Origin: Geosiphon pyriformis uo1
Lineage: Eukaryota; Fungi; Glomeromycota
Reading direction: 5' to 3'
Assembly (NCBI GenBank): GCA_016748015.1
Contig: JAAOMT010000295.1
Coordinates: forward strand, 558,001-622,000
DNA: 64,000 bases
The notes below the pieces were generated by a model. It was not told the origin of the DNA. It saw only the letters and a list, made by a program, of their open reading frames with translations, and searched no databases. Positions 1,202 to 47,090 of this stretch are shown piece after piece. How positions within the stretch are numbered: the stretch's first letter is position 1; the number at the start of each line of letters is the position of its first letter. The translations under genes and the position numbers were made by a program.

Positions 1202-1235
1202 TAATATTTTTTTTAAGACTAAGTTCTATTAAAGT

Positions 1236-3015: not shown

Positions 3016-3021
3016 TAAAAG

Positions 3022-3038
3022 TGGTGCTCTCTGTGAAG
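3022..3038 (+). promoter_or_regulatory. Primer binding site (PBS) of A1, TGGTGCTCTCTGTGA(G)G
   Basis: TGG start just after the LTR; same sequence follows the 5' LTRs of A2 and B. Confidence 0.85.
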
Positions 3039-3067
3039 TTGTCAAAATTCACTTTGTTTACTATTGT

Positions 3068-8705: not shown

Positions 8706-9226
8706 ATGAACAATTATTTTTTGGATCAAAACATTCAAAATGTCTTTTATATTTATTATAAGTATTGGATCAAAAACTATCCAAATGCTACTTTAATTAT
8801 TGGAAAACAAACCATCATAACTGATAACAGTAGAATATATATTGTTATTAGACCAAAGAAAACCACTACCAGAAAAAAAAAAATTGGTAGCAAAATGAAT
8901 AAATATCTGTTAAAAAGTATAACAATAGCTATACTCTTACCTTCTAGCACAATTGGAAAAACAATTCAAGAAATCTTGTCTATAAACAAAAACTTGTCAT
9001 ATGAAAGGCAATTAAAACTCTAATACAAAGATTTGGTCTCTTGAATACAAAACTTATTTTGCCTTAAGTATTAGATACTCTATTCACAAAAAACTTCAAC
9101 AAAATAGTTAGTTTTGAGTTAGATAAAACTCTTCAAATAGATTATACTATGAATAACTTGATTTTACTGGAGCTCAATCTCTTTGAAAAGAATGATATTA
9201 TGGTTGAAATCTATACTTCTTATTAA
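8706..9226 (+). pseudogene. A1 ORF3 (unknown function), with internal 136-bp deletion
   Basis: MNNYFLDQN..; matches A2 ORF 22860-23612; runs through the PPT into the 3' LTR. Confidence 0.75.
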
Positions 9227-9933
9227 TTATCACATATATTAGCCATTAGTGTCATATAATTAGCCACTCTATTTTTAGATAGTAATTATTAACCTAATTA
9301 ATGACCTAACCATTAACCTGATCATTGACCTAATTATTGACCTAATCAATGACCTGATCATTGACTTAATCATTGACCTAGTTGTTAACCTGATTATTGA
9401 CCACTTTTAATAGCTATATAAACAATAAATCTCTTAACTATAGAAAAGTATGAAAGAATCAAAGAAAGAAAAGAAATAAAATAACAACTTCATCTTAATT
9501 CTTCTTTTCTTATTAATTTCCCTTTCCTTACCTTTAAGTATTTGAATATCTTGGAATAAAAGATTACTTGTTGGTTATTTTCTATCTTTTTTCTGAAATG
9601 TATAATTGTAGCATTTAAAGATTATTGAATAAAACATGATTGAAGAGTACATCTAATATCTGATATTGAATTCTAAGAGTGCCAATGTGAAACATAGAAT
9701 TATACCAGTGTGTGATCATTTGTTGACAGTATAGACTATTCCTCTACTTTCAAATTCTTTAGTTATTTTTTGAAAAGTATAGCAACTGAAATATTTTATG
9801 AGACTGTTTTTGCATATTGAATCCATATTCATTCAATTTGCTCTTTAAAGTTGAATTCTCTTTGATTTCTTTTATTATCCTACAATTTTGTTCTCTTTTG
9901 CTATCCATTAACTTGTTACTCCAAATCATAATA
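9196..9933 (+). repeat. A1 3' LTR
   Basis: Direct repeat of 2350-3015, preceded by a purine tract (ancestral ggagaggatga, as in A2). Confidence 0.92.
9283..9402 (+). repeat. 12-bp tandem repeat (TRATYATTGACC x10) in U3 of family A LTR
   Basis: Units counted by eye; 4, 2 and 6 units in the other three A LTRs. Confidence 0.85.
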
Positions 9934-10283: not shown

Positions 10284-10786
10284 TTATTTTCTCTTTTTAA
10301 TATTAAGCTCTATCAAAATTTTCTAAATTTTCATTTTAAATTAGTTCCATTACTTTTTTTTTTAGAATTACTTGGACAATTCTGATTTGTAATTTTTCGA
10401 ATTGGGTATTAATAATCTTTCTTAATTGATTAATGGTTACTATATTTATTGTTGAATATAACAGTATTTCTGGATAGTTTTAAAATCTTAATTGTAATTA
10501 GTATATTGTTTATACCTGTATAAATAAATTGTTCTTTTTCACAAATTGTTTTATTTGTTGTAATATTGTCATGTTAAATATTCACTTTATTTTATCTATA
10601 TACAAGTTTTAAATATTAAAATTTTGTTTCAAGTAATAATAACAAAAGTTTCTAAAAAATTGTTGTATCTATTATTTCTAATTTTTTTTAGTTAGTTTAC
10701 TATATAATACTATTATTATTAGTATTTTTAAAAACATTTTTATTTTTGCTACTATATTATTTACTATGTTTTTAGGTCTTATATGT

Positions 10787-11530: not shown

Positions 11531-12162
11531 TTAATATTAAGCTCTATTAAAATTTTTATTTTGAATTAAGTCTATGACTTCTCTCTCTAATATTGTTTGT
11601 TTAATTCTGCTTCTTATATCTTTGATTTGCAAGTTGTTTATTCTTTTTCACTGGTTAATGATTATTGTTTCCATGTTAGTGTAGCAATGTTTTTAGGTAG
11701 TTTTAAAATATTATATATAGTTAATAGATTGTTCTAATGTGTAGTATCAGATTTGTTTTCTTTTCAATAATGTCTTTAATATTCTATATTATCTCTTGAT
11801 TAAATATTCTCTTGGTTTTATCAAGATATAATTTTTGAATATCCAACTTTTGCTTTAACTAATAGTAGCAGTATGGTATTGGAAGTTATTCTATTCACTG
11901 TTTCTAATTTTTTTTTAAAAATTTTTCTGTTGGAATCATGATGGGTATTTTTCCAAATGTGTTCTTCACTTTTTTTACTATTTTATCTGGTCAGTTTTTG
12001 GGTTGGTTTTGTAGTTTCTGGTATGGTGTACTTTTTTTTTTGTTTGGTGTTTTGATAGTAGATTGTTTGGTAGTTAATGGTAATTTTTATGTCTAATTGT
12101 TGTTGATTTAAGACCTGAAATAATTGTTGAGCTAAGGTGTAAATATGGTCTGGTATTTTCAT
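11531..12162 (-). pseudogene. G ORF3
   Basis: Starts MKIPDHIY, homologous to MEITDNIY of B/C ORF3; ends at the PPT. Confidence 0.7.
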
Positions 12163-13620: not shown

Positions 13621-14158
13621 TTAGATTTGTCTTATTTACAATAAACTGTTAGTGTTTCTATTTTCTTTTCTCTTTTTATAATGTACTGTATATTTAAATA
13701 GTAAAAGTTCTATTTTCTATCTGGCATAGTAATTATCTTTAAATTTTTGCTTCTGGATTAATGTCAATTCTTTATGATTAGTATATACTTCAAACTTCTG
13801 GCTTAAATACTTTTTCCATTTCATGATTGCCCAATAGATAACTAAGTGTTCTAATACTGATGTTCCATAGTTTTTTTCTGCTGGACTCAAGTTTTGGCTA
13901 TTATATATTACTGGATGTTCTCATTTATCCAGTTTTTTCTGTAATAGTACAGCTTTTAATACTTGGCCAGATGTATTGGTGGTAATAATGAATAGTTTGC
14001 TGTAATCTGGATAAATTAATACTGGTGTTTAAATAAGTTTTCTTCTTAAAATATTGAAAGTTTCTTGCTGGGCTTCAGTCTATTTATATTTCATGTTTTT
14101 GGTTTGAAGTTGGTAGAGTGGTTAAGCCAATTTAGAAAAGTTCTGGATAAAGTGGTGG
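13621..14158 (-). pseudogene. pol: G RNase H and RT C-terminus, truncated by insertion of F
   Basis: Colinear with B 31391-31930. Confidence 0.8.
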
Positions 14159-15125
14159 TGTTACCTGAGTAGAAAAACCGATTCAAAGTTATGAAAAAAC
14201 ATGACCAAAACATAACATAATACAATAACATTGGATAACACATTATAACTTAAGATAATGCAAGATAATATATTATAACATAGAATAACACAGAATAACA
14301 TGTAATAACACCAGATAACATATTATAACAGAGAATAACTAGGAATAATATAGAAGAACAAAACAATAACAAAACAATCAAAAGCAATCCTGTAAAACCA
14401 AAAAAATGTATAAAAGCAAGTAGTTGCAGAAGTTAGAAAGAAATATCTAAATACAAACCACTAGACAGGAATAAAATATCCTTACCCTTTTCATTATTTA
14501 TTCTATTTCATTTTCATCTTTTGAAATAAATCAATTATTGAGAAATCAGAATCACAAATTTATGTTTTCAAACTTTATAGACTTTATATAAATTAATCAT
14601 TATTTTATACCTTTGTTTCAGAACAGATGCTTTTAGCATAATTGCTTTGAACTATTAACAATTTAGACCAATTGCTTTTGATCACAGCAATTGACAATAC
14701 TAATTATTTTTTTTTTATTTTTTATTTTATTCTTTTGTGGAATGGCAACATAGTAAAATTGACTGTCTAGAAATAAACTTCGTGATAGCCTGATAAAAGA
14801 GAGAGACTTCTCCTAAGTTTTAGATATTAACATTATTTTAATAGCTTACCAGAAGTGTAAAAAAACAACACCAAACTCTAATAACTGTGCTTATTAGCTC
14901 AGAGAAAAAAGCTCATCTTTATAAAAAGTTGCAATTAGCAAAAACCCAAAACTCTATGCCTTATAACCAAAGAACTCAATGGGTAAATTCATAATCAGTA
15001 AAATAAGACTTTCAGAAACAGATAATCAAAGATTAAGCTACCAGAATTATGTAAAACATGCATTACCAATAATTAAGAACACCAAATGTTACTATTTACA
15101 TACCCCACCAAGTTTATCCATAACA
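14159..15125 (+). repeat. F 5' LTR (no partner in window)
   Basis: TG...CA termini, directly followed by a PBS; contains an ATAAC pentamer array at about 14208-14372. Confidence 0.75.
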
Positions 15126-15186
15126 TTTGGTGCTTCTTGTAAGATTATAAATACACAGAGACAAAGCACCCCAGAAATTTACAAAA

Positions 15187-18100
15187 GTGGTGACTATTGA
15201 AACAGTAGAAAAGGATCACTTCCCATACAAAAAAGCATTATTTCAATACTTTTGAAAAGACTTAGGAATACCAGCAGAAACCACTTATACAGAGAGTGAT
15301 TTTTATAACTATATTAATGCAAAAATTAACTGCCTATTAGGCCATGCAACCAACACAGAAAGACTGAAAGAACAAATCCATTAAAGCTTATTAGAATACT
15401 CAACAGCCACAACTACCTAAGCAATCATTAAAACTCTGTGTATAATCAATACAGACATTAAATATTATATGACAAAACAATTCTTTCAAGTACAACAATC
15501 AGTAAAATTCAACCCTGAGAAATACAAAAATGAATCCAACAATTCTGGAACTGTTCAAGCCAAGTCTATAGTCAACAAAAAACCAAGGTTCCTCTCCTTA
15601 ACAACTCCATCATACTATCAGACATCTTAAAGTAAAATTGTATTCAACTCACTTCTGGAAATCCAATCAGAAACACCATGAACTCCTGGAAATCCACACT
15701 CCTAGAGTCAATACAGTTGGACCAAATCACTAGGAGAATATAGATTGCTGTTTGGAAATCTTATCCTAACAGCCAGTCAAACAGGAGGAAACCCATCAAT
15801 CTGAGAAGAACCATCAGCACAAATTCCAGCAGAATCAGCATCTCTTCTGATGAAAAGAATAGCTATCTTACAACCTATTAGTTTGAGTAACAAAGAAAAA
15901 CAACCAGCACTAATACCCAGAGAACACTTGGACATACAGATACCAATACCCTTAACATCAAACAATAACACCCTACTCATCAATCAGATTATAACTTACC
16001 AAGATATTGCCAAATTAGAAAAATTCTCTGGTAAAAAAAATGATGCATATACATAGATCATGGAAGCTGAGAAAGCCATCACTACCAACAATTGAGATAG
16101 TAATAGAGCCATTCAAGCATTGCCATTCTTTCTGACTGGAACCACAGACTCATGGTATCAAAGCCTTGCAGAGAAACCAACCAACTTTGCTCCCTTTAAA
16201 CTTGTCTTTTTGCAATACTTTTGTAATTCCAACACTCTTATTAGATTACAAAATTAGTTCAATATCATAAAACAAAAAAATCACAAAGCAGTGACCATTT
16301 ATCTTGAATAATTCAACCAAATCTTTTATCAAATCCAAACCATTGAAAGGAATTACTACACTGTAGTGCAAATTTTTAATCAATTCGTCAAAAAATTAAA
16401 GAGCAGCCTCCTCTGATTCATAAGACTCTGCCACCTAATAAATCTACAAAAAGCAGTTACTCTTGCTTATGACTTTGAGTCAGCAGAACAAAAAGCTAAC
16501 TATACTCAAGCTGTTAACTTGGCTATCAATAGAACATCTAATATCGACACAAAAATAACTCAATTAAGTGAAAAATTAACTCAAAAAATTAAGGAATTTT
16601 TAGCCAGTACCATAGAATACTACCAGCTATTACAACAAAGAAATAGTAATAACAACAGATACCAACAACAACAGAATTATCAGCAACAACAACAACCTTG
16701 AAGATCTGATTCTCACAATTGTTATTATTGCCAGAAACCTAAACACATTACCTGGAACTGCCATAAGAAAATAATGAACCAAAATCAAGGAAATCAATAT
16801 CAGCAACCAAGATACTTTTAAAATATGGTATCCCAATATTCCATGCCTCAATATCAACCACCTCAATACTCACAACAAATTCAGTATACTCAGCAATTAC
16901 CTTAGAACTACTATCAGTGATTGCAGCCAATGGCTTAAACAGTACTCCAGTACCAAAACCCCATTTATAACCAACCTAAACATCATGTAATTAACTACAA
17001 TTAAGGATGAAAAAATCCCAGCAACAATCAGATACCAATTCACAATGTATCATTGCAATTCCTAAATTATAATAATGCTCCATCTTGACCAGCACCAACC
17101 AGATACCCTAACCAAGTCTTATATCTTAGTCTTATTAAAAACCAGAATTTTTATAGCTTTACACCTTTAGAAGAGAAAAATGTAGAAAAAACTCCCAACT
17201 TTTCGAGGCAAAATCAAATCAACAATACTATTCTACCCACTACTATTACTGAAAACACTACCCTTGCCACTATTTTTCTCTTTAACATTGACAATCTAAA
17301 CACCAATAGTCTTTTCAGTGGAGCCATTATTAATCAAGATAAACCAATAACTGTTCTATATACTAACATTAGAGTTGGAAACATGGACATCAAATTAATT
17401 CTTGATAGTGAATCAGCAGGTAGTATAATTATGAAGCAACTTATGGATCAACTAAATCACCAAATAGACCATACAACTACTGCCCAAATCATAACTACAG
17501 ACAGAAATACTAAAACCCCAATAGGAAAAATTGACAACTTCCTCTTTAAAATTGATGGAATTCAAATCTCCACCAAAGTGCTCATTATAGAGACCACCTA
17601 ATATCAAGCCCTCTTAGGAAATAATTAGTTAGCCAAAGCTAATACCACCATTGACTGAAATACGCAGGAACTACAGATTACTTTTAATGGACAGTATACA
17701 TAAGTTCTGGCTATGTGTAAACACTTCAAAGCTCAAAGCTCAAAAAAACCACTGATTGAATTTGAAGACTCAATACTACCACCAACAATAGAGGCCTATC
17801 AAGTTTTTTGGGCTAACAATTACCAAGCAGAGTTATCCCCATCACCAACTTGGGAAAAAAAGAGAAAAAAAAAAGCAGAAGAACTACAATTAGCATCTGT
17901 AGGCTATCATGCCCTAAGTCAAGGAAGTCAATGATATTGAATCCCAAAATTAATTTGTGTTGACTGTGAGAAAAAGTTATCTTTTATGAGCACATGTATT
18001 GGAAACAATAAGGAATGGCCAACTACTACCAAACATTATTGCAGACTTTATGTGTTGGAAAGATTTGACAAACCAAAACAACAAGGTAAATGGGACAATA

Positions 18101-18521
18101 CACCATGTCTTGCCTATAGTGAAATCCTGCTGAATAAAAGACTATAAAACAATGTTCTCGGCAGAGGAGGAACATATAATAAAGCATGTTAATATACAAT
18201 TTTAATCAATAATTGGGTATGGAAAGAAACTTCTATCAAGAACACCTGAAGACAAACACTCAGTAAATTAAACAAATACTTGCATAATAAACACAAAATA
18301 TGGAAAATAGCAAGTGCCAAAGCTGAAGATATTACACTCAATGAAATATGAAAAATCAAGAAAAATTCATTTGTCCCCAAATATGATAGATCTGACTATA
18401 TCATGGATGATTTCTTTACAGATAATCCAGACACATTATAAGATTGATACCAGAAACTGGCTCTATTCCGAGAAGAATAGAAACAATGACTGGCCAACTT
18501 AAATACGAAACTATGCAATTA
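15187..18521 (+). pseudogene. F gag-protease-Cys-rich polyprotein remnant, putative GTG start
   Basis: IAKLEKFSG capsid-like motif (ORF 15850-16056), protease (17383-17601), Cys-rich segment 17950-18520. Confidence 0.8.
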
Positions 18522-18943: not shown

Positions 18944-18988
18944 TTTGGTGCTTTTTCACGGAAATAACACAACAATAACAACTTCAAA

Positions 18989-20095
18989 ATGGCAACCACA
19001 CCAGACACAACAACTCTAGAGTATTATCAGTCAATTTATACCCATTGCAAGCAAAGATTCAATATTCCAAACGGAATTGAAATTGTTAAGAAGACTCTTT
19101 ACCAGTATATTGAAAACCATATTAATAATTATCTTCTTGGAAATTACAATATTTCAGAAGTTAGAAGCAACCTCTACAATAATTTAGTGCACTATTTACA
19201 GTTGGGGACTGAAGACCTTAACAGTGAAACACTTGCCACCTACTTTCAAAAACTTAATTTTAACATTATCAAGTATTGTAAAGAAACATATCTAGTACAG
19301 TCTAAATATTCTATTGACTTTGAATCAAAAACAAAAACAAGCAACAAAGGCAAACAAAAACTAAAACAACACTTAAATACCATCCCAAATACTCCAAAAA
19401 CACCAAAGACAACTGCCAAACACTTATAAACACCTGAACAAAGAACCAGTGTTAAATTACCACTTTCTATTACACTATTTCTAATTTTATTTGCTCAACC
19501 ACAAACACCAAATTTACCACTTAACTGTTTCTTCAGACTAGAAGACTTTTAGTCACCTAAAAATTCTATTTAATAGCAGGAATCAATATCAATCAGCACC
19601 AATATTATTGATTACTTACAGGAAAATAAAAGTAATCATTCAGAAAACTTAGAAAGTGAAAAAACTAAATCAAAACAAGAAGAAACTATAGAAAACAAAA
19701 AAGAAATGACAACAGCTTATATTGCAAAGATTCCAGAATTTACTGGTGAAGATAATAATACCAGCCCTTAAGAATGGTTTGACAAAGTTCAAAAAGCAGA
19801 AAATGCAAATGGTTAGAATGCAGCAAAAATGCTCAAAGCAATCCCATACTTTCTCCAAAGAACTGCAGAAGAATGGTTTAAAAACTTAGAAGAACCATTT
19901 AAAAACTGGTAAGCATTCAAAAATGCTTTCTTATAACAATTCACCAACAACAATACCTCTATTACTCTCTGCAATTACTTTCACAATATCAAACAAAAAA
20001 CATCTGAAACTGTCATGACCTATCTTGGAAGATTCAACAAACTTCTTTGATGAATTTAACAATTGGAAACCAATAAATACTATTCCAATGTTTAA
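18989..20095 (+). pseudogene. gag: D gag N-terminal part
   Basis: caaaATGgc start, ORF 18989-19429, IAKIPEFTG capsid-like motif near 19720. Confidence 0.85.
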
Positions 20096-20942
20096 TGTTA
20101 TAGATGATTATTTGGGGTCTCAAATCAAATAACAAATCCATAACTTGGTACTTGATTGATATTTTGGCATTGGTATTTGAAGGTTTTGTTGATCTAAAGG
20201 TTTTGTTGTAGAGATCTTAGTATAATGAACAGAAATTCAATTGTTGTTTTAGTAGCCTTCCAGAATTGCAATTCCATCAAATTTTTTTCTTAGTGTGGTG
20301 GCTAGTAATCCTTTTGGTAAGCTATCCTCAAATTTATAAGTGTTCTATTCTTGTTTCATGGGTCTTTTACCAGTTCCTATGACATCTGTATTCCAGTGCT
20401 TAATCTTTTAATCAATTAGTAAATAACAACAAAGAAAAGAAATAAAAATAAAAGAAATAAGAAATAAGAAATAAGCCAAGGCAATAATAGTTAGTATTCT
20501 ATTAATAGTCATGATCAAAAGCTATTGTTCCAGTGTGGTTAAATATCAATTATTATTAACATGAAATGTTGATAGTAGAGAGTGGATTTGAGATAGAGAA
20601 TAATTATTTTATTGATATTTGTGAATTGGAAGGTCATTTAGATTAAATCTAAACTAAGAGGTCTGTTTTTTCTACTTCTAATGCTACCAATATATATACA
20701 TAATTGAGATTCTTTAATTCCTCAATTTTTCATATCAGAAATTCTGAAATTCCTGGAATTCTACAATTCTTTTGAGAAAAATTCTGAAATTCTGAAATCT
20801 TGCAATTCTTTGTATAAGAATTCTGAAATTCTTGGAATCCTGCAATTTTATTAAGAGGAATCTTGGAATTCCACATTTACTATGACTATTTCTGATTGGC
20901 TAATTTATATGCTAACATACTTTCTATATTCTATGAGTAACA
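20096..20942 (-). repeat. C 3' LTR
   Basis: Direct repeat of 47091-47875; PPT complement ttattccttcctttt adjacent. Confidence 0.92.
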
Positions 20943-20956: not shown

Positions 20957-21586
20957 TTAATATTAAGCTTTATTGAAATCTCTTAATTCTAATTCTCCAT
21001 TTTTGAGTATTTTTTGAACTTCTTTTTCAAGAATTACTTATGCTATCTTGTTCTGTAATTCTTTAAATTGAGCATTTGTTATTTTTTCCATTTGGTTAAT
21101 GGTAACAGAGTTCATTTCTGGATTGAGTAAAATTTCTGGTCAATCTTGAAATCCAGTATGTAGTCGATAAATGGCTCTTGCTTGTCTGGTCAAATTGTTT
21201 TTCTCCACAAATTGTTCCAGTTGTTGTAGTATTATTGTGTCAAATAATTATTTTGTTTTATCTGTATACAAGCCCTGAATATTCAAATGTTGTCCCAAAT
21301 AAAAGTAACAAAAGTTTCTTGGAAATTGTTGTATCCACCAATTCCAAGTTTCTATAGTCAACTCTTGATATTGAGTGACTTTTGGTTGTGTTTCTATTGC
21401 CAATTTCACTTTTGTGATTATTTTGTTTACTGTGTTTTCTGTTTTTCTCTGTATTTTATCTCGTAGTCTTTTTCTGGTGTTTGTGTATTTAATAGTTTGT
21501 TGATTAATTGTAATTTCTATCTCTTGTTGTTGGATTAGTTGAAAAAGTTGTTGTGCTAGTGAGTAAATGCTGTCAGTAATCTCCAT
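20957..21586 (-). pseudogene. C ORF3 (209 aa, in-frame stops)
   Basis: ORF 21248-21586 continues in frame to a stop abutting the PPT; 630 nt, same length as in B. Confidence 0.8.
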
Positions 21587-22246: not shown

Positions 22247-22890
22247 TATTATGGGTTGGAGTAACAAGCTAATGGATAGCAAGGGAGAACAGGATTGTAG
22301 AGTGATAGAAATAATCAAAGAGAATTCAACTTCAAAGAGCAAATTGAATAAATATGGATTCAATGTGCAAGATCAGTCTCATAAAATATCTCAGTCGCTA
22401 TTTTTTTCAAAGATAATTAGGGAATCTAAAGGTAGAGGGATAGTCTGTACTGTCAACAAATGATCACACTTGGTATAATTCTATGCTTCACGTCGGCACT
22501 CTTAAAATTCAATATCAAGTATTAGATGTGCTCTTCAGTTACATTTTATTCAATAATCTCCAAATGTTGCAATTACATGTTTTCAGGAAAAGGGTAAGGA
22601 ATAACTAACAAGTAATCTTTTATCTTTAAGATGTTCAGATACTTGAAAATAGGGAAAGAGAAATTAGTGATAAGAGAAGAATTGAGATGAAAGTTGTTAT
22701 TTTATTTATTTGATTTTTTTAATTTCTTCATACTTTTCTACAGTTAAGAGATTCATCACTTATATAGCTATCAAAAGTAGTCAATAATCAGATCAATGAT
22801 CACTTACTAAAAATAGAGTGGCTAATTTATATGACATCAGTGGCTAATACATATGATAATTAATAAGAAGTATAAGTTTCAATCATAACA
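22247..22890 (-). repeat. A2 3' LTR
   Basis: Repeat of 39412-40103 and reverse complement of the A1 LTRs; PPT ggagaggatga at 22891-22901. Confidence 0.92.
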
Positions 22891-23516
22891 TCATCCTCTC
22901 CAAAGAGATTGAGCTTCGGTGAAATTAAGCTATTTATGATGTATTCTATTGGAAGGGTTTTATCTAACTCAAAGCTAACTAGTTTGTTGAAGTTTTTTGT
23001 CGATAAGGTATATAATACTTGAGACAAAATAAGTTTTGTATTCAAGAGACTAAATCTTTGTATTAGAGTTTTGGCTCTTTTAGCAATAGTTAAAACTTTT
23101 GAGACATCTAATTGTATAATACCCAAAATTTCTGCCTGTATTTCTGAAGTTGTTTTTTTTATGAGTTTCATATCCTCTATGATTTTACCAAAGCAACCAT
23201 AGAGTTTTAATTGTCTTCTATATGACAAGTTTTTGTCTATGGGTAAGATTTTTTGAAGTGTTTTTTCAATTGTGTTGGAAGGTAGGAGTATAGCTGCTGT
23301 TATGCTTTCCAACAGATATTTATTCATTTTACTACCAATTCTTTCTCTTTTGGTAATGGTTTTCTTTGGTCTAATAACAATATGTGTTCTACTGTTATCA
23401 GTTATGGTGGTTTGTTTTTCAATGGTTAGAGTAGCATTTGGATAGTTTTTGATCCAATACTCATGAAGAATATAAAAGATGTTTTGAATGTTTTGATCCA
23501 GAAAATAATTGTTTAT
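22860..23516 (-). CDS. A2 ORF3, 218 aa, uninterrupted frame (start ATG decayed to ATA; ATG retained in A1)
   Basis: Part of listed ORF 22860-23612; no obvious signal peptide or TM helix; overlaps the PPT and the first 31 nt of the 3' LTR. Confidence 0.75.
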   Translation of the reverse strand: MNNYFLDQNIQNIFYILHEYWIKNYPNATLTIEKQTTITDNSRTHIVIRPKKTITKRERIGSKMNKYLLESITAAILLPSNTIEKTLQKILPIDKNLSYRRQLKLYGCFGKIIEDMKLIKKTTSEIQAEILGIIQLDVSKVLTIAKRAKTLIQRFSLLNTKLILSQVLYTLSTKNFNKLVSFELDKTLPIEYIINSLISPKLNLFGEDDVMIETYTSY

Positions 23517-23557: not shown

Positions 23558-24871
23558 TTATACTTGATTTTTGCTGATCATTTAAGTCGGTATTACCACA
23601 ACAAACAGCCAATTAGGTCGTTTATAGTATTTCTTGAGTTGTATATCATGAACAAGACGATTATTGAAAATTGTTCTGGATTGATCTTGAAGAATATAAA
23701 AACCATTGTTCAAAACTTTGTTAACTATAAAGGGTTCTTTCCACTAGCTAGAAAATTTATCACCATAAACATTGTCTCTGTTAGAACAGTATTCTAGTAC
23801 CAAGTCATCAACACTTAAAGAAAGTGTTTTATAGGTTTTCTTTTTTTTAAGCTTTTCTTGGAACTGTTTTATCTTTTCAAAGGCAATTATTCATGCTTCT
23901 ACCAAGGAGTCAAAAATGGTACCAAGTCTTTTTTGCAAAATGTCTTTGTAATTTTCTATTGTGATTTCTTTAAAGAGTATTGTTTCAATGTTAGTTTCTA
24001 TTAGTAGTGTTGTTATGCATCTATAAAGCAGATAAAAAAATTCATAACTTGTTATGTCATGATTCACATTTCTATAAGCAAACAAAGCTGAAAGCAGTAC
24101 TTTGTTCCATAAGTTTGTTTCTTTACTGGTTTTGACTAGAGTTTCACATAATATTCTATTGAAATATTTCACTAGGCCATTTGTTTGAAGGTGATAAGAG
24201 AAGGAAAGTTTATGACGTATTCCTATTTTTCTGCAAAGTTCTTTAACCAGTGTATTGAGAAAAGCTCTTCCTCTATTAGATAAAAGTTCTTTAAGGCAGC
24301 CATGATAACAGATAATATCTTCATAAATGAAATTGGCTATTGAGACTGCTGTTTGGTCTGGAGTGGCTCTTGCTTCTACCCACTTTGTAAAATAGTCAGT
24401 AGCTGTAATAATATATTTGTTGCCATCAGGAGTTATTGTTAAAGGTCCAACAACATCTATACCAATTCTGTCAAATGGTTGACCAACAGAGATTGGATAG
24501 ATATCTTCTTTGCGATTGGGTTTGCCTTTTCTTTGGCAGATGTCACAGGTTTTAATGTATTTAGCAATGTTTTTTCCCAAGGTAGGGCAATAATAGTGAG
24601 CTAAAGTTTTCTAAATTGTCTTTGTTTTTCCAAAGTGTCTAGCTAATAGATTAGTGTACATGTTGTATATTACAATTTCTCTTTCTTCAAATTTGATGAC
24701 TCTCTGGAGGCAGTCAGGATCTTTTCTGTTTCTTTTGTATAATTGGTTCTGGTAAATTAAATAAAAATTTGATTGTTTATGCAAATGTTCTCTTTGCTGT
24801 CGAGTGTATTCAGGTGGGTATTGTCCTTTACTCAAAAATTTCATTAAGACAGAGTAGTTGTCCAAGTCCAT
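23558..24871 (-). pseudogene. A2 stand-alone integrase ORF (about 437 aa)
   Basis: ORFs 24611-24871 and 23891-24580 in one frame; HF..CDIC, GIDVVGPL, TDYFTKW, YHLQTNG. Confidence 0.9.
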
Positions 24872-28383: not shown

Positions 28384-29249
28384 TGTTATAGGTGACTATT
28401 TCTGGTGTTGGATTAAATAACAAACCTGTAACTTGATGCTCAAATCTAATTACAGTCAATAGTGATCTGAAGGTTTGTGTCTGAAAGGTCTGTATCCAAA
28501 GGGTTTGGTTGAGTTCTTTGTATAATAGACAGAGATTCAATGGTAATAGTTTTATCCGTAGCTTTCTGAAACTGCAGTTTTGTCAATTTCTTTCTCAGCT
28601 TAATGGCTGGTATTCCTCCTGGTAAGCTATCCTTAATCGAGTGTTCTACTCTTATTTCTGGGTCTTTTACCAGTCATGTTTATTCTGACGTCAGTACCCC
28701 ATGTATTAATCCTCAATAGAGTTAGTAAACAACAATAAAATCAAGGCAAGAAATAAAGAAAATAAAATAAAAAAAGAAAAGAAATAAGCCAAGACGATTT
28801 GCAAGTTAGTATTCTGTCAATAGCCATGATCAAGAGCTATTGTTCTAGTGTAGTTAAGTATCAATTACTATCAACATGAAGTGTTAATAGGGGCAGTGGG
28901 TTTGAAATAATAAACAGTTATTTATTTGTGGTTTGGAAAGTTGTCCAGATCAAATCTAAACTGAAAGGTCTGTTTTTTTAGCTTCTAATCTTACTGCTAT
29001 ATATATATAATTGAGATTCCTCAATTCTTCAATTCTTCACAACAGGAATCTTGGGATTCTTGGAATCCTACAATTTCTTTGAGAGGAATTCTGGAATTCT
29101 GGAATCCTGTGATTCCTTATAAGAATTCTGTAATTCCTGGAATCCTGCAATTTCTAAGAGAAATCCTAGAATTCTACATTTTACTATGTTTACTTCTGAT
29201 TGGTTAATAACTATGCTAATATATATTCTCTATATTTCTATGAGTAACA
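28384..29249 (-). repeat. B 3' LTR
   Basis: Direct repeat of 37724-38573; PPT aaaaggagggaataa at 29250-29264. Confidence 0.95.
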
Positions 29250-29262: not shown

Positions 29263-29892
29263 TTAATATTGAGCTCTGTCGAAATCTAACTCTGTTAATT
29301 CCCCTTCTTGAAGTATTTTCTGAATTTTATTTTTGAGAATTAATTGTGTTATTTGAGTCTGTAATTCTTCAAATTGAATGTTGGTGATCTTTTCTAATTG
29401 ATTACTGGTAACCATATTTATTGCTTTGTTGAGTAAGATTTCTGTTCAATCCTGAAATGCTGTATGTATTCAGTATATGGCTTGGGCCTGTGTGGATAAG
29501 TTGTTCTTTCCTACAAAGTGTTTTAATTGTTGTAGTATTCTTGTGTCGAATAATCACTTTGTTTTATCTGTATATAGATTCTGGATATTCATGTGTTGTC
29601 CCAAGTAAAAATAACAATAGTTTCTTGGAAATTGTTGTATCCACCAATTCCAAGTTTCTTTAGTTAACTCTTGGTATAGTGACTCTTTTGTCAACTCTTT
29701 TATTACTAATTTTACTTTTGCAATGATTTTGTCAACAGTATTTTCTGTTTTCTTCTGTGTTCTATGTGGCGATGTCTTTTTAGTGTCTTGATATCAGATG
29801 GTTTGTTGATTAATTGTAATTTCCATCTCTTGGTGTTGAATTAATTGAAAGAGTTGTTGTGTTTGTGAGTAGATGTTGTCTGTAATTTCCAT
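29263..29892 (-). pseudogene. B ORF3 (209 aa; four TGA stops, probably from CGA)
   Basis: MEITDNIY...DFDRAQY*, single frame, homologous to C/G/H ORF3. Confidence 0.8.
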
Positions 29893-29946
29893 TTTTTTGA
29901 TATTTCTTGTTGTATCTACCATGTCTTTATATATTCTTTTGATGAA

Positions 29947-31329
29947 TTAATTTAACATGTTGTTGTTAATGATGATGATTGGTTCCAGATCTCATGGAAT
30001 CTCCTCTGGTTGGACTAGTATCTTTTGTACTCCTAATTGTGAAATATTACTGGTGAATGGTGGTGTGATGTTGTGGTATGGTTTCAGTCGATTTCTATGT
30101 GCTGCTTTGGTTAAGATTTTGTTATCCAGTCTTAATTTGTAAGCTCTATTCCCTAGAATTTCTTCTATGTAAAATGATTCATCTCATTTGGAGTCGAATT
30201 TTTTACTCCATTGTTTTTCCGTTTTGGTATGATGTAAAAGTACTTTGTCTCCAATCTTGAATTCAACTGGTTTGTCTGGTAGTTAATTATCATGTCTTTT
30301 TTTCTGTTTCTCTTGTGACTTTTGTATGTTATCAGCTGCTCTTTTTTGTTTGTTTTCCAATGTTTCCATTAAGTTATATGTTCTTCTTAACAATGTTTCT
30401 TGGAAATTTTCTTCTGTTATTGGTTCAGTTGGATATGTGTTAACCTCTATCTCAATTGGTAATGTTGCTGTTCTACCATATATCAATTTAAATGGTGTTG
30501 CTTGTGTAGTGTCTTGCTTTATTGTCCGATAAGCAAATAATACTGATGGTATGAACAAATCCCATTTGTCCTGGTTTTCTTGGCTGAGTTTCACTATTGC
30601 TTCACACAATGTTCTATTAAATCTTTCAACTAATCCATTGGTTTGTGGATGGTATGGTGATGATAGTAGTCTCTTAATTCCGAATTTTTGGCTTAGTTCT
30701 GTTAATGTTCTATTCACAAAATGAGTTCCTTGGTCTGATAATAGTTCTTTTGAACATCCATGTTAACAAATCAGATCTTGATGGACGAATTTGACAACAG
30801 ATTCTGCATCTGCTCTTTGAATTGCTTTGGCTTCTGGCCATTTAGTAAGATAGTCCATAGCTACTACAATATATCTGTTGTCTCTGCTAGTAATTGTCAA
30901 TGGTCCAACTAAATCAATTCCAATACAGTCAAATAGTTGTCCTACTTTAATTGGTCTCAATGGTTTGCTGGGTCTTGTTCCTCTTCTTTTTTGACAAGCA
31001 TCACAATTTTGCACATATTGGATGATGTCTGGATATATTAATGGCCAATAGTATCTTTTTCTGGTTTTTTCTATGGTTGTTTCTTTATGAAAATGTCCTG
31101 CAGTTGGATTTGAGTGCATGTTGAACAGTATTGTCTCCTTTTCTGGTTCTGTAATTACTCTGGTTGGTTGATCTGAATCTTTTTTATTTTTCCGATAAAG
31201 TATATTTTGGTGAGTAATAAAATATTTGGATTGTTGTTTGATCCTCTTTTGTTTTGTTTGAGATAATTTTTCCTTGAACTGTTGAGTATTTATATAATAT
31301 TGAAGTTGTTGATATTTTTGTGTGTTCAT
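29947..31329 (-). pseudogene. B stand-alone integrase ORF (about 460 aa; HHCC, DDE, GPY/F-like region, no chromodomain)
   Basis: ORFs 30763-31329 and 30283-30717 in frame; MH..GHF..CDAC, GIDLVGPL, SDQG, YHPQTNGLVER. Confidence 0.92.
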
Positions 31330-31390: not shown

Positions 31391-34300
31391 TTAGATTTGT
31401 CTCATTTGCAACAAACCATTAGCATTTTCATTGTTTTTTCCCTTTTTATAATATATGATATAAGTATATGTTGAAAGAGCCATTTTCTATCTTGACTGTC
31501 TTTTGTCTCCAAATTCTTGTTTTTGGAGTGATGTCAATCTTTTGTGATCTGTGTACACCTCAAACTTTTGGCTCAAGTATTTTTTCTATTTCATAACTGC
31601 CCAATAGATTGCTAGATGTTCTAATTCTAGTGTTTTATAGTTCTTTTCGGCTGAAGTCAAACTTTGGCTGGCATATGTGACTAAATGTTCTCTTCCATCT
31701 AATTCTCTCTGAGATAGTACTGCTCTTAATGCTTAACCTGATGTATCAGTGGTGATAATGAATGATTTACTATGATCTGGATAGATCAATACTGGAGCTT
31801 GAATAAGCTTTCTTCTTAAGATGTCAGATGCTTTTTGCTGGGTTTCAGTCTATTCATACTTTGCATTTTTGGTTTAAAGATCATTGAGTGGTTGTGCTAT
31901 CTTTGAAAAGTTCTTTATGAAGCATCTATAATAGCTCACAAATCCCAAGAATGATTTCAGCTCAGTTACGTTGGTTGGTATTGGAAAGTTCTTTACTATT
32001 TCTATTTTCTCCAGATCTGTTTTTATGCCATCTTTGCTAAATATGTGTTCCAAGAATTTTAGTTCTGTTTTGTCAAAAAAACACTTTGTTGCATTCAATT
32101 TTAATCCTGCTCATCATAGTCTTTCGAACACTTGTTGGAGATGATGTAGATGATCATCAAATGTTTTTAAGAACACATTGGTGTCATCCAAGTATACAAC
32201 CACTGATTTCCATAATAAGCCAGTATATACAATTTCTATTAGCTGTTAGAATGTAGCTGGAGTATTGTTTAAGCCGAATGGCATAACTTCAAACTTAAAG
32301 TTTCCCTCTCTTGTAGTGAATGCCATTTTTTCTTTGTTGGCTTACTTGCCAGTACCCACTATTCAAGTCTAACGTTGAGAACCATTTGTTTTCACCGAAA
32401 GTGTCAAATAGTTCTTGTATTCATGGAGTTGAATAGCTGTCTCCATGAGTTACACTATTGAGTTTTCTGTAGTCTACACAAAATCAGATTTTTCCATTCT
32501 TTTTATGGACGAATACTACTGATGACGACTATGGGCTCATTAATGGCTGAATTAACCTGTTGTCAAGCATTCGGTTGATCTCTTGATAAATGATTTTATG
32601 GCTGGCTGGTGGTACCCTATATGCTTGCTGTTTGATTGGCATTGTATCTCCAGTCTTGATCTGATGCTGGATAATATCAGTTCTGCCAAATTCATTTTTA
32701 CTAGCAAAAATGTTATTGAAATTATTGAGTAACATCTTTAGTTGCATTTGTTGAAGTGGGTCTAGATTTCTTATGTTCATCTGTTCCAATTGTTCTGGCT
32801 GTAACAGATAACATTCATTTTATCTGTAGATAGTTTGTAATGTAATGTCCACATATTCACAAAGCTGTGGAAAATCTGGAATGCTGCTTGGTGCTTGATC
32901 TTCAATTTTCATGGTTAAATATCTGAAAGTGGTTTTTTCTGGTATCTTTACAACATTTTCAGTATTGTTGTAAATGGGAATTTTGATATGGTTATGGCTT
33001 TTGACTGGTATATGTAGATTGATAAGTCCAATTTCTCCTGATTCACAAAGGGTTGCTTCTGCTTCAAAAATCTGTTCTTGCTTCTTTTCTCTTCTTTCTA
33101 TTGCTAATATGTATTGGCTATATGGTGGAATGGAAATTGTTTGACCAGTTGAGATAATTTCTTCTTGGCCAATAATTTCTTCCTCTATCATATTAACTGG
33201 TACATTTATTCTACTCATTAATTCAAATCCCTGTATCCCTTTTGTTGTTATCTCTAATTCTTCTCTATTTTCCACTAACACTAACTGAGCTATTTTAACC
33301 AGAGACAGAAATATTGCCTGTGTTATTCTTTCATTTGGCTCTATAACATAGGTCTTTTCTGAGTCATTTTGTAGTATAGCAATGATATTTCTTATATATC
33401 CTGTATCAATTATTCCTTCTCTGATGTTTATTCCCTTTTTCGCTAAACTACTCCTAGATGCTAATTGAACTATTGTTGTTGCTAGAATTTCCAGTGCTAT
33501 TTTCAGATCAATGCAAATACACGAATGGGGTTCCAATTTGATGGCATTCTTTTCTGGATATCTCAGATCAAATCTTGCATCAGTATCATGCACATGTTCT
33601 GGCATGATACTTTCATTCTTATCACTGAACCATTTCAGTTTTTGCTCTTTGGTGAGATCAGGGAGTGTGATATATTGTTCATAGTTTGAATTAGAGTTTG
33701 AATCTGAGTTGGAATCATTGTCATTGTTATAGCCATTTTGAACGGAGCTGGAACCATTATTTTCATTATTGTTATTGTTAAAGTTTGAATCAGGGTTGGA
33801 ACTCAATTTTGATTCTGATGCACAGCTGTTGATTGGTTCTTCTTCTTTAGGGATTGTGTAGATCATGCGTGGTGGTGGATTGTAAATGAGGTCACAATTA
33901 TCACAAAATTGGAAGTCACATGGAATCAAACAGTAGTCATATAATTGGATGTTGATTTCTTTCAAGCGTTGCTCTTGCTCTTCTCTTGTGGGTGCTAAAT
34001 TCTGATAGTGTTCATAGAATTTTTCTGGGCTGTTTTCTAAGTCAATAAAGGCATCCGGATTGAGAACCAAAACAATGTCTGTTGGTTCTGGAGGGTTATT
34101 CTTGATCTTCAGAATTTCATTGGGTGAAGCACCTTCTATTTTGGCATTGGCCATTCACCAGATCTCATCCTTGTCATGTGGATAGCCGTCTAGGCGGGAT
34201 ATAGCTCAGTGCCATGCTGCTGTGATGAGCGTACCATGACTCACCCAGTCACTAATGAGGATCATGTATTGGCATGAAACATCGCACATTTCTCCTTGAC

Positions 34301-37300
34301 CAGGAATGTTGTTTCACATTTCTTCGTCAAGTAATTGTTCACTGCAAGCAAAACATGGTTTGTTGTCCTACTTGCTTTGTCTTTTTGGGTAGTCATATTG
34401 TTCTCTATGGCAGGGCTTACAATAGTAATGGGTTCACATCCAGTAGTCTTTATCTGATACTATCCAAGCTCCCATTAAGGACAGTTTCTTTTCACAGTCC
34501 TTGCATTTGAAAAGTATATATGACGGCTCTTTTATTGGTTCACGTGAGTATTTCCTTTCCCAGCCACTAGTTATTTTTTTTGCAATGGTGGTTTCTTCAA
34601 GTATGTTTTCTTCCCTTCCTTTTTCTTTTTCCTTGTTTTTTTCTTTCCAATCTAGAATTGATAGCATCTTGCTTTGGTTGTTGTCAGTTCAAGCATTGAT
34701 GATGGCTTCCCAAGTAGATTCTTCTCTTTGTTTCTCCTTTCCATTGTCATTGTTGTCCCAAACAAATATTGGCAGCAGTTCATTGTGGTTGACATTGGCC
34801 CATGAGACTTGGTACGCTTCCCAGGTGGGTTTCACTTTTTCTTTCTTGAATTTGATAAGTGGTGTTGATGGCATAATGATGGGCTTGAAGTGGCCACACG
34901 TGGCTGGTACCCATGTGTGTCAACCATTCTGGCTAAGCTGGAGCTCTTGGGTGTTCCAATCTAAGATTGTATTGGTTTTAAACAGCCAGTTGTTTCCAAT
35001 GAGTGCTTGGTATTAAGTGGCTTCCATAACGAATACTTTGATTGGTACTATGATGCCATTGACTTCTATGGAAAAATCATCAATCTCTTCAATGGGTGTT
35101 TTGGTTGCTCCATCAGCTGTAATAATCCTGGTGCTGGCAGCATAATCAACTCGGTGACCTAATTGATCTATGAGTTGTCTTGTGATGATGCTGCCAGCTG
35201 ATCCACTATCCAGGATCAGTTTGATGGAGTGATTATCAACTTTCACATCAGTGTACATCATGGTGATGAGTTTTTCCTCAAGTGCTGTTCCATTGAACAA
35301 AGATGAGTTGATGGTTTCCTCCAATTCGAAAGGAAAGATGGCTGCAAGAAATTCATTTTTGGTGACCATTGCTGGTGGAATATTGTTGGTAAGTATTGTT
35401 TGAAGTGGGTTGGATTCCGAGTTGTTGGTCATGACATCTTCTGAGATAACCAGAAGACTTAAATAGTTCTGAGAATTTGGGTTTTGGGTGGAACCAGTAC
35501 CTGAATTCTACTGTTAAGAGCCTAATGGTTGGTAAGAGAAGCTGAGGATTAGTTGATGAACAACTATTGCCGATCTCCAGTTTTGAGTGATTCTAGGTCT
35601 TGGGTTTCCTGATGTCATTTGAGTGGGGTTTTAGAGTGGTGTTTGAATTGGTTGTTGGGGCTGATAAATTATTTGGGGCTATGGCTGATAAATTACTGGT
35701 GGCTGCAGTTGATAAATTGAAGATTGATATACTGGTAGTTGATAGATTGGTTGTTGCATTATTGGCAGGTAAGTGGTTTGATATTGGTCTTGATTTGGGT
35801 AGTGATTCTAAGTCTGAAATCTGTGATCAAGATTTTGATATTAATTTCCTGATCATGAATTGTTGCTATAAAATTGACAGTTGGCTCTAATGTAACCTTG
35901 TTTACTACAGTTGTGGCAAACACACATTTCTGGCTGTCACAGCTGATTGGATAATGTTGATGATGATGATATTGATGGACATAGCTGATTTTGGAAACGA
36001 TTCGTGTTTCTTGAATTATTGCATTATTGTGGTAGTTAATAGATTGCATGATTGTCAGCTAAGTATCCCTCTAGTTTCTGATTGATTGTATTACTGAATT
36101 GTTTTAGTTTGGAATCCAAGTCAGATGATCTGTTTATTACTAAATTTACAGCTTGGGCATGATTGGCTTCTAGCTTGGCTGCTTCAAAATCTCTGGTGTG
36201 GTTAATGGCAGTTGGGAGGTTAACTGGATGCATTGGATGTATTCACTAAAGGATGCTACTGTGCAATCCTCTAATGAACTGGTTTAAGATCTGTGGTGCT
36301 GTAAAATAATCAGCTTAGATTGCCTGAATTTGGCACAGATTTCTATAAAAGTGTCCCAAGTAAGTAGTAACTGCTTCTGTGTCCTCTTGTTTGATGGTGG
36401 TAAATGTGTTGGTCAAGTGATTGATACTATTGTTATTACTAAAGTATCTCAAAAATTCTGTTTTAAACTCATTGAAGATTTGTGATTTAGCAGCTAGGCT
36501 CTGATACCACGAGTTAGCAGTATCTTTGAGAAAATAGGGGATTGCTTAAAAGGCTCTACTGTTATTCCATCCATTGGCCACTATGGCTTTTTTAATGTTG
36601 TTGAGCCATATTTGGGCATTGTCCTCTTTGCCAGTAAAATTGTCAAGTTTTGCAATTGGTACATAGGCCATTGGATCTAAGTTGGGTTGTTGTGGTGGTA
36701 GTTGAAATGGTTGTTGTTGTATAGATTGTTAGGGTGGTAATTGAAGTGGCAGTTGTATGAATTCGGCTATTGGATTAATCAGTGGTTGATTGATGACAAT
36801 TACTGGAGATAAGTTTTGTTGATTTATTAAATTGGAGTTTTAATTATTCTGAGTTGGTGGTGTCTGAATATTCAGAGTTTCAATTTCTGGATTTTCTGGG
36901 TTTAGATTTTGCTGGGTTTGAAGATTTGGGGTTTCAAATTCCGAGTTTTCAGTGATTGGGTTCTGGTAAGTGAATTCTTGATTTTTAGCTTCTTTTTTTT
37001 CCTCTTTTTCTGATTTCATTACTTCCTACAAATCAGAAATTCCGAAATCTGAGGGAGGTGGTGGCAATTGAAGTCCTGATGGCATTAATGATTGTGAGTT
37101 AAATCCTTTAAAATACATGCTGTATGGTTCTAATAACTCTGCTTTCCTTTGTTTACTTTGGAATAGGAATTGTTCAAATGCTGATGTTATGTTTAATGTG
37201 GCTGCACCAGTAGATGTAATATTAATGACACTTTCAGGTGTATAGTGGTATGATGGATTAGTTGGGGACTCAACTCTTGTTTTCTTCCAAGTAGGTGATT

Positions 37301-38577: not shown

Positions 38578-39359
38578 GTAGTAAAAAAGGTGTTGTCTTT
38601 TCCAGCATTTGCCAGTACCCATCTAATGATTCTTTGCTGAGCATTAGCATTGGTTTCTTGTGAGAACCAAGTAGCAGAAGAGCCTTGGAGATAACCACCA
38701 ACAATTTGGAACTTGTATTCATTATCATATTGGTTTGCTGTGGCAGCTTTCTTAAAATCATCTAGCCATTCAATTGGATATTAGGCATCACCTCTGAATA
38801 ATGGTAATGGGGTGTTGTTTCTTCGCCTTAAAGCAGTTTGTATATCTTGGAGGGCAATCAGAATGTTTTGTTGCAGAGGGTCTTGAGCCATTGGTTTAGG
38901 TGTAACTGTTTGTGTGGAATGTTCTAATTCACTTGAAAAGAGATCAAAAACAGGAGCAGTTTGATAGCTTTCTTCTTCTGTTTCAAGAGGAGTTTCTGTT
39001 AATTGATGGGCAGTAATCCAAATGTGGATTTGATAATTCAGATATTCGAAATCAGGGGGCTGTTGTTCAAAAGTTGCAGAATATAAAAGCTGATTAATAC
39101 TGTTGTTTCTTTTTTCAAAGTCATCTTCAAAATAAGCTTGGTCAAAGTAATAGATTATATAAGCTGTATAGATTTTAGCTGAATGCTCATTCAAGAACCA
39201 GTTCCAAAAGTCTTGGAATTGTCTGCTGGATTGTTTTTCAATGGGGAAGCAAATCAAGCAGAAGAGCAAAGGATTGAGTTCAATAAAGTCTAGATCATTT
39301 TTGTTGTGTGCTTTAAAGTGTTCTTCTAATTGTTGTGGCAGGTATGAATAATCACCCAT
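38578..39359 (-). pseudogene. gag: A2 gag N-terminal part
   Basis: ORF 38781-39359 (MGDYSYL..), PLFRGDA capsid-like start. Confidence 0.87.
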
Positions 39360-39411
39360 ACAATAGGAAACAAAGTGGATTTTGACAACCTCACAGAGAG
39401 CACTACTTTTA

Positions 39412-40103
39412 TGTTATGGGTTGGAGTAATAAGCTAACAGATAGCAAAAGAGAACAGGATTGTAGAGTGATGAAAATAATCAAAGAGAATTTAACTTCAA
39501 AGAGCAAATTGAATAAGTATGGATTCAATGTGCGAGATTAGTCTCATAAAATATCTCAGTCACTATTCTTTTCAAAGATAACTAGGGAATCTGAAAATAG
39601 AGAGATAGTCCGTACTATCAATAAATGATCACACTTGGTATAATTCTATGTCTCATATTGGTGTTCTTAGAATTCAATATTAAGTATCAGATGTGCTTTT
39701 TAGTCATGTTTTATTCAATAATCTCCAAATGTTGTAATTACACATTTTCAGGAAAAGGGTAAGAAATAACTAACAAGTAATCTTTTATTTTTAAGATGTT
39801 CAGATACTTGAAAGTAGGGAAAGGGAAATTAGTGATAAGAGAAGAATTGAGATGAAAGTTGTTATTTTATTTATTTGATTTCCTTAATTTCTTTATACTT
39901 TTCTACAGTTAAAAGATTCATCACTTATATAGCTATTAAAAATAGTCAATGATCAGATCAATGACTAGGTCAATGATTAGGTTAATAATCAGGTCAATAA
40001 TCAGGTCAATGATCACTTACTAAAAATAGAATGGCTAATTTATATGACATCAATGGCTAATACATGTAATAATTAATAAGAAGTATAAGTTTCAACTGTA
40101 ACA
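39412..40103 (-). repeat. A2 5' LTR
   Basis: Adjacent to the PBS; 6 units of the 12-bp repeat at 39944-40015. Confidence 0.92.
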
Positions 40104-40107
40104 GTAT

Positions 40108-40884
40108 AATCAAATCTCATTTGTCCTGGTTTTTTTGACTGATTTTGGCAATGGCTTCACACAATGTTCTGTTAAACCTTTCAACTAACCCATTTGTTTG
40201 TGGATGATATGGTGATAATAATGGTCTTTTTATCCCAAATCTTTGACTTAATTCTGCCAATGTTCTATTCACAAAGTAAGTTTTTTGATCTGATAGTAGT
40301 TCTTTTGAACATCCATGTTGATGAATTAAATCTTGATGAATGAATTTGGCAATGGATTCTGCATCTGCTCTTTGAATGGCTTTTGCTTCTGGCCATTTTG
40401 TGAGATAATTCATGGCTACTGCAATATATCTGTTGTCTCTGCTGATTATTGTTAATGATCTGACTAAGTCAATTCCAATGTAATTGAATGGTTGTCTCAC
40501 TTTGATTGGTCTTAATGGTTTACTGGTTTTTGTTCTACCTCTTTTTTGACAAGCATTACAACTTTAAATGTATTGAATAATATCCAGATATATTGATAGC
40601 CAATAATATCTTTTTCTGGTTCTTTTCATGATTGTTTCTTTATGAAAATGTTCTGCTGTTGAATCTGAATGTATGTTAAATAATATTGTTTCTTTCTTTG
40701 ATTCTGTAATTACTCTGATTGGTTGATCTGAATTTCTTTTGTTTTTCTAGTAAAATATATTTTAATGGTTAATAAAATATTTTGATTGTTGTTTTATGTT
40801 CCTTTGTTTTTTTTGAGATAATTTCTTCTTAAACAATTTAGTATTGATATAATGTTGGAGTTGTTAATATTTTTGTATATTCAT
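40108..40884 (-). pseudogene. C stand-alone integrase, N-terminal and core part
   Basis: ATG at 40884; ORF 40117-40500 with GIDLV, YLTKWPE, YHPQTNGLVER. Confidence 0.88.
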
Positions 40885-40915
40885 TTTTTTGTTATATTTT
40901 TGGGTTAGAATGTTT

Positions 40916-47028: not shown

Positions 47029-47090
47029 TTTTGGATAATTGTTGTTGGTACCAGTTTTCTGTAAGATTATACCTCACAGGAAGCACCAAA

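Follow-up and report, generated by a model that had tools for sequence, protein, structure and literature searches.

An old, selected, non-env accessory gene family between integrase and the 3' LTR of fungal Ty3/Gypsy retrotransposons

The third open reading frame (ORF3) located between integrase (IN) and the 3' LTR of Ty3/Gypsy retrotransposons in Geosiphon pyriformis is a real accessory gene of Ty3/Gypsy elements in fungi. The family it represents is old, under selection and not of env type, and no description of it was found in the libraries searched. The DNA analysed is a stretch of 64,000 nucleotides from contig JAAOMT010000295.1, hereafter the window, and ORF3 occurs there in three types, A, B/C and D. 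ORF3 constitutes a third gene with a start of its own, handed down together with its element, and its product is basic and predicted to be helical.

The first 57 kb of the window consists of decayed LTR elements with the Ty3/Gypsy order gag, PR, RT, RH and IN, TG...CA ends (partly mutated), a PBS-like TGGTGC after the 5' LTRs, and a polypurine tract (PPT). Self-comparison and junctions show that the elements are nested in the order D > B > A > C; the copies A', G and I and some fragments come in addition, and 40104-47875, previously taken for another copy, is the 5' part of B. This four-level nest spans 18522-55640, and A interrupts the B integrase gene, flanked by a 4-bp target duplication. 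B, C and D encode a dUTPase located between PR and RT; no dUTPase match was found in A or A'. The 3' LTR of A (22249-22890, minus strand) is 91% identical to its 5' LTR at 39414-40103, with all differences being transitions. Across four LTR pairs, divergence is 8-12%, and 96-100% of it consists of transitions. Since the window is also depleted of CpG (o/e 0.10), this pattern suggests methylation-driven decay.

Several other features of the window were recorded. Open frames lie right after the 5' LTR and PBS, upstream of the capsid-like region, in A (38781-39413, minus strand), A' (3014-3643, plus strand) and D (18968-19429, plus strand); they have no Pfam match and are either the gag N-terminus or another accessory ORF. 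A Cys-rich segment between protease and dUTPase is kept in four elements (49342-49788, 34113-34532, 43628-44026 and 17941-18348) and is possibly a zinc-binding domain. A plus-strand element at 14152-18521 (gag, PR and Cys-rich part) abuts the truncated 5' LTR of D, and a GC-richer, nearly intact non-LTR element with an endonuclease-like ORF, RT and RNase H occupies 57438-62777 on the minus strand. A perfect 280-nt duplication flanking a 20-N gap at 57040-57619 is probably an assembly artefact.

As the initial annotation had proposed, a same-strand ORF is present between IN and the 3' LTR in A, A', B, C, D, I and C-like copies, and its length across lineages is 209-239 aa. ORF3 of A (22860-23516, minus strand) comprises 218 codons with no internal stop, begins with ATA where relatives have ATG, crosses the PPT and reaches 28 nt into the 3' LTR. 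ORF3 of A' (8706-9226, plus strand) retains its ATG, and a 136-nt frameshifting deletion takes out its core. ORF3 of B (20957-21586, minus strand) and of C (29263-29922, minus strand) each contain four stops, and the latter ends directly before the PPT. The first ATG of C, at 29922, is in frame and 30 nt upstream of the ATG at 29892, and several relatives use the 29922-type start. ORF3 of D (53980-54687, plus strand) comprises 235 codons with stops at codons 65 and 218; the TGA at 54631 is premature, and the frame continues to the TAG at 54685-54687, crossing the PPT into the 3' LTR (54668-55640, plus strand). The D frame, for which 217 aa had been given, thus has 235 aa, and relatives have 235-239 aa.

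The remaining copies are a D-type ORF3 in I (about 1182-1867, minus strand), which has several stops and is truncated at its 5' end by an LTR fragment inserted there; a divergent, frameshifted B/C-like ORF3 in G (matched part 11679-12162, minus strand) with a K-x-x-PY motif; a 5'-truncated B/C-like copy at 10300-10779 (minus strand); and the start of a 3'-truncated B/C-like copy at 56202-56366 (minus strand). Most ORF3 copies in the window are thus broken by stops, frameshifts or deletions. The motif earlier quoted for C is actually the text of the B copy at 20957-21586. All close protein matches listed carry the label Geosiphon pyriformis (for A the best 120 of 125, for B all 91 and for D the best 120 of 205), and 20 of the best 120 relatives of A are exactly 218 aa long.

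Copy context and dN/dS were analysed across the window and a 3.7-kb metagenomic contig, L001, and codons with stops were left out. ORF3 from B and C gives a dN/dS of 0.15 (0.07-0.26), compared with 0.16 for IN, 0.10 for RT, and 0.76 and 1.59 for the shifted ORF3 frames. Because transition bias alone lowers dN/dS, substitutions were permuted with their spectrum kept. The amino-acid difference between B and C is 0.305 against an expected 0.42-0.43, a value reached by 0 of 2000 permutations in both directions. The corresponding counts are 1 and 0 of 2000 for C against the copy at 10300, and 16 and 40 of 2000 for D against I. The N-terminal halves of A and A' exhibit no selection signal (1168 and 1128 of 2000), and IN from A and A' is likewise without signal (106 and 421 of 2000). 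These substitution patterns show that purifying selection acts on ORF3 in B/C as well as in D. The ancient, helical, non-env accessory protein under selection that the initial annotation had envisaged is supported to this extent by B/C and D, but not by A and A'.

Profile searches, put forward as a check in the initial annotation, join the B/C and D types significantly and retrieve homologues beyond the window. By hhalign, B/C and D align from residue 1 onwards over 188 columns, with a probability of 94% and an E-value of 1.3e-7. A search with the C profile recovers 97 of 120 D proteins (E < 0.001), and one with the D profile recovers 32 of 91 C proteins. On this profile evidence, B/C and D ORF3 are homologous over their whole length. 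The similarity once noted for the C-terminal halves is therefore wider still between B/C and D, with the N-terminal helix and hairpin included, but it does not extend to a significant direct match of A with B/C or D.

One search round with a combined B/C and D profile through 1.84 billion representatives recovered 112 sequences (E of 0.001 or less), which add three further Geosiphon ORF3 lineages. Of 96 new identifiers, 17 were looked up and each was named Geosiphon, and 76 of the 79 others share a segment of at least 68% identity with a Geosiphon-labelled record. Three metagenomic homologues stand apart: P0367, P0370 and P0423 (E-values of 2.5e-24, 2e-22 and 5e-5, respectively). An expanded Glomeromycotina family had been suggested as a possible relative, but this link is not supported at the sensitivity of the single B/C and D round, none of whose 112 hits is so named; a loose pattern built after the suggested motif, which fits 1 of 10 known members, was uninformative.

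P0370 is encoded on L001, which carries RT-RH, IN, an intact 230-aa ORF3, a PPT and an LTR start, in that order. IN from L001 is 43-56% identical to IN from the window and ORF3 is 26-33% identical, and L001 is an independent Gypsy element outside the window's genome. L001 has one internal stop in IN (1564) and an intact ORF3 frame (2456-3148). Searches found no viral contigs with P0370 or P0367 and no phage records with P0370. Since an independent element carries a homologous ORF3, the gene is old and has been inherited with the element. Between lineages, ORF3 is 24-35% identical and IN 34-56%.

ORF3 of A probably belongs to the same family, with P0370 acting as a sequence bridge. The A protein matches P0370 with a blastp E-value of 2e-4 and 24% identity over 216 columns, colinear from end to end. 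The global alignment score has a z of 8.2 (mean of 6 of 21 A sequences, C-terminal tail removed) and is reached by 0 of 300 shuffles, whereas the controls lie at 2.0 for reversed P0370, 2.1-2.9 for D, ~1.5 for C and P0367, and at most 1.3 for seven window decoys. Residues 60-200 of A and the D protein both retrieve from the Atlas a 127-aa cluster of 123 members and a DUF6192 cluster, these clusters carrying no identifiers and being matched by description. The low-confidence models of A and D also have a common order of helix, hairpin, long loop and helices.

A separate acquisition of an unrelated gene is a rather improbable origin for ORF3 of A, although its position would be the same, and the colinear full-length match to P0370, the common Atlas clusters and the common predicted order of structural elements all argue against it. 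Such an origin would agree with the direct profile tests, every one of which is negative: A against B/C or D gives hhalign E-values of 0.24, 0.36 and 0.47, a further direct test gives 0.19, direct hmmsearch scores fall within the shuffle range, and in a search with the A profile a reversed homologue outscored P0370. It would also agree with A having the lowest IN identity to other lineages and no dUTPase match. The common acidic tail results from translation of a DNA motif together with the purine tract, which B/C read in another frame. The motif, GAGCTCA-R-T, is kept just before the PPT in every lineage in differing reading frames (22900-22920, 29263-29275 and 54643-54655 in the window; 3091-3100 in L001) and is likely to be a cis element for reverse transcription. 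The C-terminal 'EL-x-L...EE' tail was accordingly rejected as protein homology and cut before the global comparison of A with P0370. ORF3 crosses the PPT into U3 in A, D, I and L001 and stops just before the tract in B and C.

In all seven elements examined (six in the window plus L001), a stop closes pol behind RNase H, and IN forms an ORF of its own. The intervening spacers are 24-65 nt long, A/C-rich, G-poor and free of ATG, the frame of IN varies, and IN starts with ATG in six of the seven elements and with ATA in D. IN start sites lie at 24871, 31329, 40884, 52435, about 13590 and about 7356 in the window, and the L001 spacer is at 772-799. IN of A (23558-24871, minus strand) has its own ATG 64 nt past the RNase H stop and ends 41 nt before ORF3; IN of C (29947-31329, minus strand) has its own ATG 61 nt past the RNase H stop, and its stop is 24 nt before the first ORF3 ATG. 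Because IN and ORF3 are each separate from pol in the six window elements and L001, the elements are, by their gene layout, at least tricistronic downstream of gag-pol. The spacers between IN and ORF3 are 24 nt in B/C, 41 nt in A, 160 nt in D and 316 nt in L001, and those of D and L001 end in a pyrimidine-rich run. The short spacers of A and B/C suggest that ORF3 would be expressed by re-initiation or from a subgenomic RNA, and the long spacers of D and L001, with their pyrimidine-rich ends, suggest that it may come from a spliced or internal transcript.

This arrangement brings to mind the caulimovirus P6/TAV protein, which is last in position and lets the downstream cistrons of a polycistronic RNA be made. 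ORF3 is basic and likewise the last gene, and could be an RNA-binding helper for translation or export of the downstream cistrons (IN and ORF3), which in all six window elements and L001 include an IN separated from pol by an ATG-free spacer and placed in varying frames. However, short ATG-free spacers could allow re-initiation unaided, and no caulimovirus protein was matched in Pfam or BFVD, so a helper of this kind is rather unlikely.

The position of ORF3 directly behind IN is also compatible with a partner of IN or the pre-integration complex that acts in nuclear import or in target choice, replacing a chromodomain. A chromodomain was not detected in any scanned IN ORF, the elements are nested in one another, the ORF3 linker resembles a nuclear localization signal (NLS), and in B, C and the copy at 56 kb ORF3 is in the frame of IN behind a single stop. 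Nevertheless, the stop and the separate ATG are kept and ORF3 lies in other frames in A, D and L001, and the divergence of ORF3 is far faster than that of IN, which together make an IN partner unlikely. For the same reasons of stop, start and frame, a read-through fusion of IN and ORF3 in B/C was dropped and ORF3 is not regarded as a domain of IN; it is not joined in frame to IN as an IN C-terminal domain would be.

ORF3 proteins are basic (median pI of 8.7-9.3) and contain few cysteines. A transmembrane-like stretch, defined as a Kyte-Doolittle 19-residue mean above 1.6, occurs in none of the 29 full-length D, 44 shorter D, 9 C and 7 other homologues, and in 4 of 20 A copies (maximum of 1.79). 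The claimed lack of a transmembrane helix is therefore borne out for D, C and the other homologues and is marginal in 4 of 20 copies of A. No hydrophobic N-terminus suggestive of a signal peptide was seen by eye. An env gene or env remnant, for which position argues, as do the env-like ORF3s of 210-230 aa in the available text on rotifer Vesta elements (PMC5408684), is highly improbable and is largely refuted: B/C, D and the outside homologues have no transmembrane-like stretch, cysteines are few, and searches of Pfam, PDB and BFVD yielded no viral fusion protein or other env match, the structural comparisons resting on low-confidence models.

The predicted layout of ORF3 is a helix, a beta hairpin, a basic loop and a helical core, and pLDDT reaches 70-82 only in residues 111-150 of D; two models are poor, with a mean pLDDT of 40 and 47. 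Nothing significant was found against Pfam, PHROGs or PDB sequences. The structure comparison proposed in the initial annotation was performed with Foldseek on the D model against PDB and BFVD, and gave no match at E 0.001, to env, to an IN C-terminal domain or otherwise. The best VIA Z-scores of 4.9 (D) and 7.5 (A) correspond to generic helical bundles. Missing fold matches of low-confidence models such as these do not show a new fold.

The basic loop contains the motif R/K/H-x2-5-PY in 17 of 29 full-length D proteins, 15 of 44 shorter D proteins and 5 of 7 divergent homologues. The motif was scored against the PY-NLS consensus as given in the accessible part of PMC2408616, and arises by chance in 3-19% of shuffles per sequence. 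It is absent from A (0 of 20) and C (0 of 9), and the copies A, B, C and D of the window lack it as well.

The one lead that recurs for the core is DUF1016_N (PF17761), the N-terminal domain of YhcG, for which no function is shown in the part of PMC1189080 available. DUF1016_N and DUF6192 (PF19691) have an Aromatic-x-x-IG helix, a second helix, a G-x-x-N turn and an R-x-x-Y/F helix, an order like that of ORF3. However, these domains are prokaryotic and fused to PD-(D/E)XK nucleases, whereas ORF3 has no nuclease domain and scores far under the cut-off. The Atlas score is 0.85, such scores being uncalibrated for protein parts; Pfam E-values are 0.03-0.12 in 3 of 25 members, and the best score is 12.9 bits against a curated cut-off of 32.8. 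By hhalign, DUF1016_N matches a 12-sequence alignment with an E-value of 0.014 and a probability of 3%, above 100 of 100 block shuffles, for a family chosen after the fact, and nothing was found for the core of A (hhalign E of 0.21). The sequence resemblance of the ORF3 core to DUF1016_N is suggestive only.

The U3 regions contain family-specific tandem arrays, with a unit of 12 bp in A and of 38-39 bp in B/C; D has a weak 20-bp repeat (54901-54947). In A, the 12-bp array lies in U3 of the 5' LTR just upstream of a TATA-like box (39945-40015), and its counterpart in A' has 10 copies at 9283-9402. The 38-bp array of C is in U3 of the 3' LTR (29044-29174), and B has a 39-bp array at 20739-20847. 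Counts of 8-mers in the U3 arrays are mostly at the level of shuffles. The B/C array was also considered as heat-shock elements, and this was rejected, there being no three-unit element in six LTR stretches.

The function favoured for ORF3, at a rough probability of 0.4, is that of a nuclear protein that binds the LTR of its own family and activates the element or shields it from methylation silencing. This reading is favoured because ORF3 is basic and soluble, has an NLS-like linker and a core like a nuclease-attached domain, and diverges much faster than IN in a CpG-stripping host whose elements bear family-specific U3 arrays. The protein would enter the nucleus through its basic linker, aided in some lineages by the PY-NLS-like motif. 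Its helical core, if the resemblance to DUF1016_N holds, might bind nucleic acid, although this step is itself tentative and somewhat less probable than not. The LTR tandem arrays would be candidate targets, and bound ORF3 would activate the element or lift or prevent methylation silencing. Several observations weaken this reading: the DUF1016_N match is far under the Pfam cut-off and the A core lacks it; the PY motif is missing from A and C and has an appreciable chance rate; many LTRs have arrays in U3, to which host factors may bind; and the models are poor, with no selection signal between A and A'. A fuller version, in which a multi-cistronic element encodes IN as its own gene and an ORF3 regulator whose DUF1016_N/DUF6192-like core is of prokaryotic or phage kinship, binds family LTR arrays and lifts silencing, is rather doubtful.

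RNA-silencing suppressors and movement factors are often soluble, basic and fast-evolving, and ORF3 has all three properties. A cytoplasmic role as such a suppressor, or as a factor for movement through the coenocytic hypha, is quite unlikely, given that no family or fold was matched and that the PY-NLS-like motif is a nuclear hint in several lineages. Among the functions listed in the initial annotation, the evidence thus leans weakly towards nuclear DNA binding.

Extra ORFs after pol are known in Ty3/Gypsy elements, their function being open and some of the products nuclear (PMC7264820), and the accessible part of PMC2864245 describes a fungal 'add. ORF' between pol and the 3' LTR. ORF3 is like these sense ORFs in position, orientation, presence in most copies and open function. 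The reviewed sense ORFs, however, are mostly env-like with transmembrane segments (PMC7264820), whereas the ORF3 product is soluble, its frame reaches across the PPT into U3 in three lineages, and the IN ahead of it is a separate ORF. The bdelloid elements Juno, Vesta and TelKA, as far as covered by the available text of PMC5408684, resemble the present elements in having a dUTPase, here in the PR-RT interval of B, C and D, as well as a third ORF of comparable length; their ORF3s are of env, GDSL, DEDDy, TM or coiled-coil types, none of which is matched here. No description of ORF3 was found in the literature searched; the G. pyriformis genome paper, its supplements and Repbase entries may bear on novelty.

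Two regulators offer analogies for the favoured nuclear LTR-binder. Arabidopsis VANC, as portrayed in the part of PMC5735166 available, is encoded by a transposon, diverges fast together with its tandem targets and acts in a methylating host, and the proposed likeness to ORF3 lies in these features and in the family-specific nature of the targets. VANC derives from plant DNA transposons and has no sequence link to ORF3, so binding or demethylation by ORF3 would be an analogy. Foamy virus Tas/Bel1 is the product of an accessory gene near the 3' LTR that activates the LTR (PMC4929722, available portion), and is likewise a proposed analogy; foamy virus, however, is a retrovirus with env, and Tas has no sequence link to ORF3. 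In the literature searched, no fungal LTR retrotransposon was found to encode a trans-acting regulator.

Transposon ORF3 copies, and not host genes, account for at least 331 of the 'hypothetical proteins' listed for G. pyriformis (120 + 91 + 120). Intact natural copies and matched LTRs make the question of a self-encoded anti-silencing or activating factor directly testable. LTR elements account for 41% of the Geosiphon genome according to the available text of PMC11952901. If the fuller, multi-cistronic version of the favoured reading is true, ORF3 would be the retrotransposon counterpart of VANC or of foamy virus Tas, and would help to explain the expansion of LTR elements to this level.
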